This document shows, one piece after another, positions 38,928 to 42,552 of a DNA stretch of 64,000 nucleotides; position 1 is the first letter of the stretch, and each line of letters begins with the position of its first letter. The stretch is taken from contig OZ242374.1 in assembly GCA_965209055.1 (NCBI GenBank), positions 1,056,001 to 1,120,000 on the forward strand, read 5' to 3'. The position numbers were made by a program, and so were the translations under genes. Below the pieces are notes generated by a model. It was not told the origin of the DNA. It saw only the letters and a program-made list of their open reading frames with translations, and ran no database searches. This DNA is from Acidobacteriota bacterium (GTDB lineage Bacteria; Acidobacteriota; UBA6911; RPQK01; JAJDTT01).

Positions 38928-39083
38928 ATCGCCCGTTCTTCCGTGTTGTCACGCAATTCTGCCGTTGGAAAGCGTACAGGGGGGACTGCCGTCCCCCCTA
39001 ACACCCCCTTCGGCGACAGGAAAGTCGCCGCTCCAACGGCGGTAAGAAAACCGCCGCTCCCGGCGACAGGAAAGTCGCCGCTC
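38928..39083 (-). repeat. Composite REP/REPIN-like element (three REP hairpins + GGGGACGGCAGTCCCC hairpin + conserved tail); intron target
   Basis: Reverse complement: GAGCGGCGACTTTCCTGTCGCCG-GGAGCGGCGGTTTTCTTACCGCCG-TTGGAGCGGCGACTTTCCTGTCGCCG-AAGGGGGTGTTAGGGGGGACGGCAGTCCCCCCTGTACGCTTTCC... Confidence 0.9.
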
Positions 39084-40928
39084 GTGTGCCCGACATGGGC
39101 TGTCTCTAAGGGATGAAAGATCCCGAAGGAGGTGATGGAACCAACCTTAGCCGAACCGCAAGGCGTAGCCGCGAGGTGAAGCTGGAGGAAGCGGCAGGCA
39201 AACCCACGACTGCAGGAACACGAACCGGCAGTGAGGCCGGGTGCGGGCGGTGAGCTGGCGAGCAACAGCGAAACCCGAACTCCATCCAGACGCACCAGGT
39301 AGAGCCGGGCGGCGCGGGGGGAAAGAGGCAGCACCTTACTCGGGGAGGTCTCAAGGGTGAGAGCCTTTGAGAAGTCAGCAGAGGTCATAGTAGCGAAGAA
39401 GCCGGGTAGAGCTGGTGGAGCGAAGGACCGAAGGAGTCGTACCGACCTTATGGAGGACTCGTCAATGGGGGCATCAAGAACTCCGAGGACGGGACCTGGG
39501 GGAAACCCCGGCCCCGGCCCGGACGGCCCAAGGGTGGAACCCGTCAAGCCGGAAGGGCGGAGTCCGAGTCCCGTTGGCGGCGAAGACCCGGAAAGAAGGG
39601 ACCGGTACGAGTCGCTGATGGACGAGGTGGTCTCGGCAGACAACTTCGAGGCGGCCCTGAAAGCGGTGCAACGCAACCGGGGCGCGCCTGGGGTGGACGG
39701 CATGAAGACCACCGAGTTGAAGGGACACCTTCAGAAACACTGGCCGCGAATCCGAGCCAAACTGCTGGACGGGACCTACGCGGTGACCCCGGTGAAACGG
39801 GTGGAGATACCGAAGCCCAACGGCGGGGTGCGCTGCCTGGGGATCCCGACGGTGTTGGACCGATTCATCCAGCAACTGCTGTTGCAGGCGCTGGAGAAGA
39901 TCTTCGACCCGGGGTTCAGCGAACACAGCTACGGGTTCCGACCGGGACGCAGTGCCCACGACGCCGTGCGAGCGGCGCGTGAGTACGTGGTCCGGGGAGG
40001 CCGGGACTGGGTCGTCGATTTGGACATCGAAAAGTTCTTTGACCGGGTGCATCACGATATCTTGATGCGGCGAATCGGGGCCGTCATCCGGGACAAACGG
40101 GTGCTGAAGCTGATTGGTCGGTACCTGCGCAGCGGGGCTTTGGTGGAAGGCGTCGTGGTGGAGGCGCGGGAAGGGACGCCGCAAGGCGGACCGCTTTCGC
40201 CGCTACTGGCGAACATCTACCTGGACCCGCTGGACAAGGAACTGGAGAGACGCGGGCACCGCTTCGTGCGCTACGCAGACGACTTTCAAGTCTACGTGGG
40301 GGGAGCGGCCGCGGCCAATCGAGTGGTCCGGAACCTGCCGAAGTGGATCGCGAAACATCTGCGGCTGAAGGTGAACGCGCGCAAGTCCGGAGTGGGCCGG
40401 CCCTGGGAGCGAAAGTTCCTGGGCTTCCGGATCACCCGGCAGGGGCAGATCGAAGTGGCCCCGGAGAGCCTGAAGCGGCTGAAGTCACGGGTGCGCCAAC
40501 TCTGGGACGCCCGGCAGAACCTCAGCAGCCAGGGACTGAGAGACCAGTGGCGGCGGTACATCCGAGGTTGGTGGGGCTACTACCGGCTGGCGGAATGGCG
40601 GCGTCCGGTCTGGGACCTGGAGGGCTGGATCCGACGCCACATCCGTAAATGCTTCTGGACGCGCTGGCATAGCTGGCGGGGGCGTCTCCGGCGACTTCGG
40701 TCGCTGGGGATACGCGGTCGACTGTTGCTAGTGGCCCATAGCAGTCGAGGGAGCTGGCGAATCGCCCGGCACTGGACTATGCACACGGCCCTGAGCAACA
40801 GTCGCCTTCGCAACTATGGGTTCCTGGTTCCATCGGACCTCGGGTGACTCCAACCGCCGGATACTGAAAACGGTACGTCCGGTGGTGTGGGAGGGTGCAG
40901 GGGCGCAATCCCCTGCACTCGACCCGCT
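39084..40928 (+). mobile_element. Group IIC intron (ribozyme plus RT/maturase ORF)
   Basis: 5' GTGTGCCCGACATGGG; D5 ACCGCCGGATAC...GTACGTCCGGTGGT with CGC triad; D6 GTGCAGGGG/CCCCTGCAC with bulged A40922; inserted 3 nt after a hairpin; removal restores TGA-GGAG-GAGCGGCGAC on the minus strand. Confidence 0.92.
39465..40847 (+). CDS. ltrA: Group II intron reverse transcriptase/maturase (no endonuclease domain)
   Basis: NRGAPGVDG, IPKPNGGVRCLGIPTVLDR, SYGFRPGRSAHDA, DLDIEKFFDRV, GTPQGGPLSPLLANIYL, RYADD, FLGF, X domain RGWWGYY; GGAGG RBS before ATG 39465. Confidence 0.96.
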   Translation: MGASRTPRTGPGGNPGPGPDGPRVEPVKPEGRSPSPVGGEDPERRDRYESLMDEVVSADNFEAALKAVQRNRGAPGVDGMKTTELKGHLQKHWPRIRAKLLDGTYAVTPVKRVEIPKPNGGVRCLGIPTVLDRFIQQLLLQALEKIFDPGFSEHSYGFRPGRSAHDAVRAAREYVVRGGRDWVVDLDIEKFFDRVHHDILMRRIGAVIRDKRVLKLIGRYLRSGALVEGVVVEAREGTPQGGPLSPLLANIYLDPLDKELERRGHRFVRYADDFQVYVGGAAAANRVVRNLPKWIAKHLRLKVNARKSGVGRPWERKFLGFRITRQGQIEVAPESLKRLKSRVRQLWDARQNLSSQGLRDQWRRYIRGWWGYYRLAEWRRPVWDLEGWIRRHIRKCFWTRWHSWRGRLRRLRSLGIRGRLLLVAHSSRGSWRIARHWTMHTALSNSRLRNYGFLVPSDLG

Positions 40929-40932
40929 CTCC

Positions 40933-42552
40933 TCAATCCTCGTAATCCACCAGGATCTCGACGCTCTTGAGAGCGAGGGGGCTGGTGACCTGGGGATTCC
41001 GGGCCCGGACGGCGGCTCCGATTCGGTTCCAGCCCTGCTTGAGTTGGGGAGGACCGGCGGCGAATTCGAGCCAGGTTTCGGTGAAGAAGACGTGCCGCGT
41101 GTGGGGCTCCCCCATGGGTTGGCCGTTCAGGGTGACCTCCAACCGGTCCAGGGGAGTCAGTTGGTCGACCAGAAGACGGACCGTCGCCGCTTTCAGGACG
41201 CCCTCCCGGGCGGCCGCTTCCAAGTCGTCCGCCACGTCCAGGGAGATCTCCGCGGCGTCCCCCGCCTTGGCCAGGTCGAGCGGCAGCCGGCCGGCCCCCC
41301 AGGTCTTCTGATCCGCCAGGTAGTGCTTGTCCTTGCGTCCGATGGCCTGGGGGTCGCCCAGCTCCTTCCACGGGAGGCGGTCGTATTGCCGGTCCCGGAC
41401 CACCTGCAGGTAGTGGTTGTTGAACACGAAGATCCCCTGGGCGCCGGCCCGGTAGTGGGCCGCGGCCACGGCGCGGCACATCTCGGCCGTGTAGTAGTCC
41501 TTCTCGTTCCAGATCAGCTTGGCCGAGAGGGGCCTGGGTTGCTGGAAGAGGCCCAGTCCCTGGGCCACGACCTGGGTACGGGTCCCCCGAGCCGCCTCCA
41601 CGTACTCCTCCACAGGGAGGCGATGCTTGTTCCCCGGCTGGTAGCCGACGATGAGGATGTCCAGCAGACCCTTCGAGAGCCAGCTTCTCACGTCCATGCC
41701 CTGCGCCAGGGCCTCGTCCAGCGAGCCGGGCACTCTGACCGAGAGGGAGAGCCGGCGGCCCACCCGTTCCCCTTTTTCGTCCAGCGCCCGGCGGATGTCG
41801 CCCAACAAATCGGTCAGCAGGGGCGCACCCTCCGCTTCCCGGCCTTGGGGAAAGAGAAAGGGATGCCGGCAGAAGTCCCAGTCCAGTCCGTCCAGGTCGT
41901 AATTCCCGATGGCCTCCCGGGCCAGAGCCAGCTTGTATTCCCGGACCTGGGGCAGAGCGAAGTTGTAGGCCGTCCTGCGGGCGCCTTCCTCCCCCAGGAG
42001 CCAATCCGGATGCCGCCTCTTGACAGGCGACATGAGGGGGTCCTCCAGCCCGCCCTCCAGGCGGCTGTCGTGGATGTCGTTGACCCGCATGCAGACGAAG
42101 ACTTCCAGGCCGGCCCGATGCCCGTGCTCCACCACCACGGCGACGGGGTCGGTTCCGGCCTCCATCAGCCGTTTCGCGTTCTCCCGGATGCGCCAGAGTC
42201 CGGCGCTGTGGAAGGAAGGGTTCTCCACCCCCCAGATGGAGCCCACGTCCGTCGGGTGCGAGTACCAGTCCGAGAGCCTGTGGGACGGGGTCCCCAGGTA
42301 GGGGTCGGTTCCCAATTGCCAGAAAAGCGTGTTGATCTGCGTGTCCCGCAGCGGTTCGATGGCCAGCTTGACCAGGCCCTCCACTCCGATGGGAGCTTCC
42401 AGCACGGGACCCGCCACCGATCCCCCGTCGTTGGAGAGGATGAAACGGGTTTTGCCGCCGGGCTTCGCCCCGGGTTCCTCCGGGGCGGCGCAACCCGCCA
42501 GCAGGATCACGGCGCCGGCTGCGGCCGGGAGACGGCGGCAATAAAACCTCAT
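40933..42552 (-). CDS. Putative lipoprotein, GHL10/family-10-like glycoside hydrolase TIM barrel
   Basis: Lipobox ILLAGC; NDGG, GLEVFVCMRVNDIH, HPDWLL, YNFALPQVREY, YDLDGLDWDFCRH. Confidence 0.75.
   Translation of the reverse strand: MRFYCRRLPAAAGAVILLAGCAAPEEPGAKPGGKTRFILSNDGGSVAGPVLEAPIGVEGLVKLAIEPLRDTQINTLFWQLGTDPYLGTPSHRLSDWYSHPTDVGSIWGVENPSFHSAGLWRIRENAKRLMEAGTDPVAVVVEHGHRAGLEVFVCMRVNDIHDSRLEGGLEDPLMSPVKRRHPDWLLGEEGARRTAYNFALPQVREYKLALAREAIGNYDLDGLDWDFCRHPFLFPQGREAEGAPLLTDLLGDIRRALDEKGERVGRRLSLSVRVPGSLDEALAQGMDVRSWLSKGLLDILIVGYQPGNKHRLPVEEYVEAARGTRTQVVAQGLGLFQQPRPLSAKLIWNEKDYYTAEMCRAVAAAHYRAGAQGIFVFNNHYLQVVRDRQYDRLPWKELGDPQAIGRKDKHYLADQKTWGAGRLPLDLAKAGDAAEISLDVADDLEAAAREGVLKAATVRLLVDQLTPLDRLEVTLNGQPMGEPHTRHVFFTETWLEFAAGPPQLKQGWNRIGAAVRARNPQVTSPLALKSVEILVDYED

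Follow-up and report, generated by a model that had tools for sequence, protein, structure and literature searches.

A group IIC intron of an Acidobacteriota bacterium and its probable use of a REP family as the main source of insertion sites

Group II introns of class C (group IIC) are characterized by a CGC triad in domain V (D5), an AGGAA motif in domain I, an exon-binding site 1 (EBS1) of 3-4 bp, a stem-loop at the position of intron-binding site 2 (IBS2), and the lack of EBS2 (Toor et al., 2006; PMC1702495). Class C introns have been described after terminators (Waldern et al., 2020; PMC7306698), and a review of 2015 distinguishes three target specificities among bacterial group II introns, namely homing sites, terminators and attC sites (PMC4424553). 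Here we analyze a group IIC intron lying in a stretch of 64,000 nucleotides (the window) from the genome of an Acidobacteriota bacterium, where it is inserted at the foot of a repetitive extragenic palindrome (REP). An earlier reading of the letters of the window alone (the original prediction) had proposed a lineage specialized in such palindromes.

The terminator-type introns B.h.I1 and GsI-IIC (PMC1702495; PMC4424553) share with this intron a small ribozyme, the CGC triad, the AGGAA motif, an EBS1-IBS1 pairing of 3-4 bp, a stem-loop directly upstream of IBS1, putatively instead of IBS2, and an endonuclease-less reverse transcriptase (RT), the RT studied here being nearest to that of GsI-IIC. 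Unlike them, the intron of the window follows a GC-rich stem-loop devoid of a T-run, its IBS1 is (G/C)CUC and not U-rich, the hairpin belongs to a REP family of hundreds of copies, and the intron is antisense to the gene that it abuts. Location after an intrinsic terminator, a typical but non-defining feature of IIC introns, is absent here. The IIC-attC introns (S.ma.I2 lineage) likewise form a IIC sub-lineage settled on a repeated, non-terminator recombination substrate with an imperfect palindrome (PMC4424553); their target is the attC of cassette arrays, whereas the one described here is a dispersed palindrome of the type associated with REPs and REP-associated tyrosine transposases (RAYTs).

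REPs also serve as multicopy, extragenic and low-cost targets for the insertion sequences ISPa11, ISPpu9/10 and IS1397 (PMC1525189; bioRxiv 10.1101/527788), which, in contrast, are DNA transposons. As for introns, a table of Tobes and Pareja (2006) gives “Group II intron 2/9” as REP-associated in Pseudomonas putida KT2440 (PMC1525189); that entry gives numbers alone and proposes no mechanism, whereas in the present case an RNA-DNA pairing that reads the REP foot has been identified. In the excerpts of the literature that we searched, no description of a REP-reading IIC lineage was found, the precedents being that table entry and one phrase in PMC1702495. Finally, the described REPs, which carry a GTAG or CGTC tetranucleotide at one end, resemble those of the window in their GC-rich hairpins of 20-25 nt, hundreds of copies and mostly extragenic position (PMC3733652), as well as in the RAYT-like gene flanked by REPs and in a conserved end tetranucleotide, here a candidate tag. 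This putative tag is CTCC, GGAG on the other strand, neither GTAG nor CGTC, and by analogy GGAG would correspond to GTAG in classical REPs.

The intron and its insertion site

An intact, full-length group IIC intron of 1845 nt occupies positions 39084-40928 of the plus strand and begins with GUGUG. Its class, already proposed in the original prediction, is established by the Rfam matches in domain I, by the triad at 40855-57, which reads CGC where the model has AGC, by the AGGAA at 39186-90, which aligns to the AGGAA of the Rfam domain I model, and by the protein that it encodes. The latter shows RVT_1 and GIIM in Pfam and nothing else, no endonuclease domain being detected in that scan; it also matches TIGR04416, and it is homologous to known RTs from about residue 86 onwards. 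Among solved structures, the best match is the GsI-IIC RT (6ar1, 453 bits), followed by 7uim (345 bits), both of them IIC RTs, with far lower scores for LtrA (134 bits) and the RT of 6me0 (118 bits); it is these scores that assign the RT to its class. Domains V and VI fold into two strong hairpins, the second with a bulged A, and the RF00029 match, obtained with relaxed thresholds, ends exactly at 40928.

Directly upstream of IBS1 stands the hairpin CGGCGAC (39061-67)-AGGAAA-GTCGCCG (39074-80), followed by CTC (39081-83) and, with no T-run in between, by the GTGTG of the intron. It is the third of a tandem trio, two like hairpins lying directly upstream. The range first given, 39061-40935, was correct for the hairpin, the exons and the stop codon of the neighbouring gene, but 39061 is the start of the hairpin and not that of the intron. 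The perfect hairpin, the CTC and the missing U-tract had been read exactly, and the same is true of the 3′ exon: CTCC is followed by TCA (40933-35), the stop of the minus-strand open reading frame (ORF) 40933..43110, which puts that stop 4 nt from the 3′ end of an intron antisense to its neighbour. Furthermore, the junction is fixed by an empty orthologous site, since one related genome (G007) has an uninterrupted ...GCCGCAC-CTC^CTCAC... at a locus occupied by the intron in another (G005).

The REP family and its reading by EBS1

The hairpin that serves as target is one of a true multicopy REP family. This follows from an excess of matches over control, a conserved CTCC foot, depletion in coding sequence and a RAYT-like gene flanked by REPs, so that the abundant family invoked in the original prediction is borne out. 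In the window, the 20-nt core of the hairpin has five matches at up to 2 mismatches against none expected. In the whole genome to which the window belongs (G000, 6.08 Mb), a strict pattern CGGCG-N6-12-CGCCG-CTC (type A) has 276 matches and a broader REP pattern 329, against 7 for the reversed control, dispersed all round the chromosome; a looser pattern, GGCG N6-12 CGCCSCTC, was dropped, its control counts being nearly equal to its matches. The base that follows a strict type-A REP is C in 93% of cases and the one before it T in 70%, with nothing conserved further out, and across the two patterns the C at +1 is found in 93-95%, as a single C in 311 of the 329. A second subfamily, GGGSG...CSCCC-CTC (type B), accounts for about 208-227 matches, some overlapping.

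The original prediction had also described a stop-GGAGGAGC-REP arrangement at 8564 and 20653. There it holds, the ORFs 6878..8566 and 19762..20655 ending in TAG, after which come GAGGAGC and a REP (with an imperfect hairpin at 8564). As a general feature of the family it does not, for CTCC after CTC, that is the GGAGGAGC extension, occurs in only 8/329 REPs, and the foot is CTCC.

With a rough gene model of crude ORFs filtered by the base composition of third codon positions (GC3), which replaced a too permissive mask of ORFs of at least 300 aa (6623 ORFs, 85% coverage), 73/276 (26%) type-A and 48/227 (21%) type-B matches fall inside ORFs covering 78% of the genome. Moreover, type-A REPs more often face the preceding gene as a GGAG-hairpin (92 vs 42), which fits with an intron antisense to its neighbour. 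An apparent bias of REP orientation by replichore disappeared after binning and was set aside. As for the transposase, a 252-aa ORF of the same genome gives 77.4 bits with NF047646, the model of REP-associated tyrosine transposases (cut-off 80); it contains PNHVHV, which we take to be an HUH-like motif, and has REPs of the family described here on both sides. A second, weaker RAYT-like match (51.9 bits) was seen at another locus, L061.

The congeners G003 and G005 are rich in REPs of both types, in each genome about equally common. G001 and G007, in which a search for the intron RT found none at E ≤ 1e-40, also have both types in abundance, and in G031 and G050 they stand at background level. 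In G003, the segments C1:113377-113539 and C1:139496-139686 are tandem arrays of at least six REPs with a 28-nt period, superficially array-like.

In domain I, the stem GCTG/CAGC closes the loop GCGAGCAA (39258-65), which in the alignment corresponds to the A-rich terminal loop of the Rfam domain I model. The GAGC of this loop, presented at first as a candidate, is confirmed by comparative sequence evidence as EBS1, because exon and loop covary across 49 distinct introns (taken with 6 nt of exon) and because GAGC changes to GAGG in all five copies of G003, whose exons end in CCTC. GAGC is kept in G000, G005, G031 and G050, where exons end in GCTC. When four exon-loop pairs and four closing-stem pairs were scored, 93.1% were paired, against 55.9% in column shuffles (0/500 reaching the observed value) and 31-40% when the alignment was slid by 1-3 columns. 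The exon-loop pair is formed at -1 in 47/49, at -2 in 48/49 and at -3 in 49/49 introns, all four exon-loop pairs vary on both sides, and the introns of G012 and G011 show a further compensatory change. IBS1 and the putative IBS3 coincide exactly with the conserved foot of the REPs.

Table 1. Features of the intron, its insertion site and the RAYT-like gene (window coordinates unless another sequence is named)
Feature	Position	Strand	Basis
Full-length group IIC intron	39084..40928	+	sequence and Rfam; junction type backed by empty orthologous site of a sister copy
Domain I core, including AGGAA 39186-39190	39165..39332	+	Rfam RF02001, 83.7 bits
EBS1 hairpin, stem GCTG (39254-57)/CAGC (39266-69), loop GCGAGCAA, EBS1 GAGC 39260-39263	39254..39269	+	sequence and covariation
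Ribozyme segment RF01998	39335..39428	+	Rfam, 43.7 bits
Intron-encoded RT/maturase ORF, 496 aa as listed	39357..40847	+	Pfam, TIGR04416, YADD
Domains V and VI	40852..40928	+	RF00029, 36.6 bits (gathering score 40); fold z = -6.6
REP copy 1 of tandem trio, CGGCGAC-AGGAAA-GTCGCCG + CTC	39011..39033	+	sequence and pattern match
REP copy 2, CGGCGGT-AAGAAA-ACCGCCG + CTC	39037..39059	+	sequence and pattern match
REP copy 3, 5′ exon target, hairpin 39061-39080 + CTC	39061..39083	+	IBS1 GCTC 39080-39083 by covariation
3′ exon CTCC; first C (40929) candidate IBS3 and last base of REP foot	40929..40932	+	sequence
Convergent neighbour gene, weak GHL10 glycosyl-hydrolase-like match	40933..43110	-	ORF list and profile match
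RAYT-like HUH tyrosine transposase gene, outside the window	L060:1336-2094; G000:C1 about 1142805-1143563	-	NF047646, 77.4 bits

Copies of the intron and phylogeny of its reverse transcriptase

Relatives were sought in 60 related genomes and then by a scan of species genomes, which added named relatives. The unpublished genome G016 enters only the tally of the first survey, and none of the conclusions draws on it. The genome of the window holds one full copy and a 100% identical 248-nt 5′ fragment, the latter after CGGCGGTTAGGAAACCGCCG-CTC, the commonest REP variant (42 copies). This fragment (G000:C1:5955124-5955371, minus strand) keeps the intron's 5′ end and lacks the rest; being the opposite of the leftover expected from incomplete reverse transcription, it likely derives from a later deletion or rearrangement. 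G003 (RT identity 86%) has five near-identical copies at different loci, of which four follow type-B REPs ending in ...C-CTC and one (L036) a hairpin plus CCTC outside the REP patterns, whereas the two copies of G005 (87%) both follow CGGCGGC-AAGAAA-GCCGCCG-CTC. Altogether, 8/9 insertions in the genus lie in REPs. Introns with GAGC fall in type-A REPs in four cases against none, and those with GAGG in none against four (one-sided Fisher p = 1/70), the variant of EBS1 matching the subfamily used although each genome holds the two subfamilies in about equal numbers.

Beyond the genus, the copy of G031 (RT identity 69%) follows a palindrome, CCTGGGCC-GTT-GGCCCAGG-CTC, whose 3′ half and CTC foot recur in 13 copies; for the GCCGTTGGC pattern, this small 13-copy family of G031 was all that was found, with nothing clear in G050, G011 or G012. 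In G050 (partial RT) the intron (L012) follows a hairpin and GCTC outside the REP patterns. In the verrucomicrobial Chthoniobacter flavus Ellin428, three copies (L078-L080) with 56% amino acid identity follow C(G/A)GCGAC-(TGGAAA/CAGGAA)-GTCGCCG-CTC^CCAG; the 3/3 visible sites are in the same REP type as here, for which the C. flavus genome has 95 matches against 6 in the control. Among the other relatives, L071, L074 and L075 follow other GC hairpins and GCTC, L073 and L077 hairpins and CTA, and at 53% identity or less most readable 5′ exons are textbook T-run terminators, the remainder being different sequences. Of the predicted 5′ exon, a REP hairpin plus GCTC, the REP hairpin is present in most cases (8/9 in the genus, 3/3 visible sites in C. 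flavus), but G003 has CCTC and some copies follow hairpins outside the REP patterns.

In a quick, midpoint-rooted maximum-likelihood tree of 75 rows (79 RTs before identical rows were merged), all ten rows labelled “hairpin+CTC” fall in one clade of 16 (SH-like approximate likelihood-ratio test, SH-aLRT, 100; branch length 0.49), together with L072, L073, L077, L076, L070 and L081. None of the ten sites has a T-run, and the introns of T-run terminators are found in the other clades of the tree. The best explanation is that a distinct RT clade moved away from T-run terminators to hairpins rich in GC and devoid of a T-run, REPs in many cases. The RT chosen as outgroup (L002) is absent from the tree, its match being shorter than 300 aa. 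It belongs to a second, unrelated group II intron of the same genome (RT 35% identical), with three copies of identical scores (L002-L004) outside the window at G000:C1:784315-785451, 3708734-3709870 and 5306220-5307356 (Rfam RF02005 D1D4-6, 160.7 bits; D5-D6, 41 bits).

Some other loci deserve mention. The copy of the window and one of G005 (L026) adjoin orthologous genes, the stop being 4 nt away in the former and 1 nt away in the latter. The REP variants in which the two copies sit differ and their orientations relative to dnaA are opposite, which points to separate insertions or to a local inversion. From one species to another the REP arrays downstream of one and the same gene vary, and would therefore turn over quickly. 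L069 and L070, from records titled Acidobacteriota and Anaerolineales metagenome-assembled genomes, seem to be a single intron locus, with coordinates that nearly agree; N-masking of the 5′ exons leaves their hairpins unreadable. In G012, a 48%-identical IIC intron beginning with GCGUG, not GUGYG, occurs in 25 places or more. In 17/18 loci it occupies the same position, about 10 nt behind a hairpin, within a composite repeated element that contains several palindromes. The 19 loci of this type that were viewed comprise 18 of G012 (L009, L029, L037-L051, L053) and L052 of G011, beside L010 and L030 of G011.

REPs as target suppliers: alternatives and implications

The reading that we favour, and consider likely, is that of a mobile IIC intron for which a REP family is the main supplier of the target motif, both in this acidobacterial genus and in C. 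flavus. Reverse splicing would put the intron into single-stranded DNA where a stem-loop precedes an IBS1 of 3-4 nt, (G/C)CUC, and C as IBS3. REPs with the foot hairpin-CTC^C would provide most such motifs, and EBS1, the GAG-C/G that lies in the terminal loop of the hairpin in domain I, pairs with the last stem base and CTC, whereby the intron reads the conserved foot. The hairpin would be extruded in single-stranded DNA and priming would take place at the replication fork, by analogy with what is described for the intron family (PMC4424553). In line with insertion at forks, the sense strand lies on the inferred lagging-strand template in 8/9 copies of the genus, the origin being placed at dnaA (which in G000 coincides with the GC-skew minimum) and the terminus assumed opposite, in G003 and G005 as well. 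The intron, which is intact, is probably mobile, and it may be currently active.

The data also contain points that weigh against this reading. REPs represent 243/478 (51%) of the perfect hairpin+GCTC sites and 196/436 (45%) of the hairpin+CCTC sites of G000, and as they supply about half of the candidate sites, 8/9 is only modestly above availability (p about 0.02, the copies not being fully independent), which by itself explains much. L036, L012, L071, L074 and L075 follow hairpins outside the REP patterns, and in G000 just one full copy and one 248-nt fragment occupy some 276 matching REPs. On the side of the ribozyme, the -4 pair is formed in only 30/49 introns, being broken in L080 (GAGG/GCTC) and in L069 and L070 (GAGG/ACTC); EBS3 was not located by covariation, because IBS3 hardly varies (the first base of the 3′ exon is C in 21/23 clade copies); and the D5-D6 score lies below the Rfam gathering score. 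In addition, the window copy alone lies on the inferred leading-strand template.

Several of these points would be expected of an ordinary IIC intron with no preference for REPs, which would accept any stable stem-loop followed by GCUC^C and meet REPs simply because no such motif is commoner, the genomes being GC-rich and possibly poor in T-run terminators. The share of REPs among simple candidate sites, the clade members after other hairpins and the very low occupancy all agree with it, and IIC introns are already said to follow terminators “or other inverted repeats” (PMC1702495). It accounts less well for the insertions in REPs of the genus and of C. flavus taken together, for the exact superposition of IBS1 and IBS3 on a foot conserved in 93-95% of REPs, for the use of the same REP type in two phyla, and for an EBS1 variant that tracks the REP subfamily when the two are about equally abundant; we hold it to be unlikely, though with a real share of the probability. 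Far less credible is a secondary association, in which REPs mobilized by RAYT would have gathered beside existing introns, or the copy would be an immobile, vertically inherited relic. The variation of REP arrays after the same gene from species to species, with its quick turnover, and the orthologous neighbour shared by the G000 copy and one of the G005 copies speak in its favour, but the junction is always hairpin-CTC^C within the REP foot, the foot is uninterrupted in G007 at the site occupied in G005, five near-identical copies lie at different loci of G003, an identical fragment is found elsewhere in G000, and the ORF with its YADD is intact.

On the favoured reading, REPs would be preferred over other hairpins, and what stands of the specialization first proposed is the mostly REP-borne sites and the CTC^C junction. 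Specialization in an exclusive sense is not proven, because REPs make up about half of the simple sites and some members of the clade follow hairpins outside the REP patterns.

A bolder view, which we put forward tentatively and rate somewhat below even chances, is that this clade of Acidobacteriota and Verrucomicrobiota is a dedicated parasite of GGAG-tagged REP/RAYT systems. EBS1 and EBS3 would read the very tag and terminal stem pair that RAYT needs, so that the targets could not easily mutate away; the change from GAGC to GAGG would switch the REP subfamily; intron and RAYT would both act on REP hairpins extruded on the template of the lagging strand; and a fourth specificity would be at hand.

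Indeed, a REP-using lineage, if real, would add a fourth target specificity to those of bacterial group II introns, and would tie together two selfish-element systems, a retroelement and REP/RAYT, by a single conserved tag. Such a lineage would also be a natural example of an intron retargeted between repeat families by a one-base change in EBS1, and may help to explain the persistence of IIC introns in genomes rich in GC, in which canonical T-run terminators may be uncommon. The sites suggest that REPs are harmless landing places for this lineage, and REP hairpins would then be candidate multicopy, extragenic safe-harbour sites for intron-based genome engineering.

Elsewhere in the window, the ORF fragments 38439-38684 and 38799-39116, upstream of the intron, looked integrase-like by eye; Pfam and NCBIfam gave no match for them and no claim is made. 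An 832-aa ORF at 35462-37960 on the minus strand is without a Pfam match at E ≤ 0.01, and just downstream of it lie two type-B REPs, at 35233-35282.

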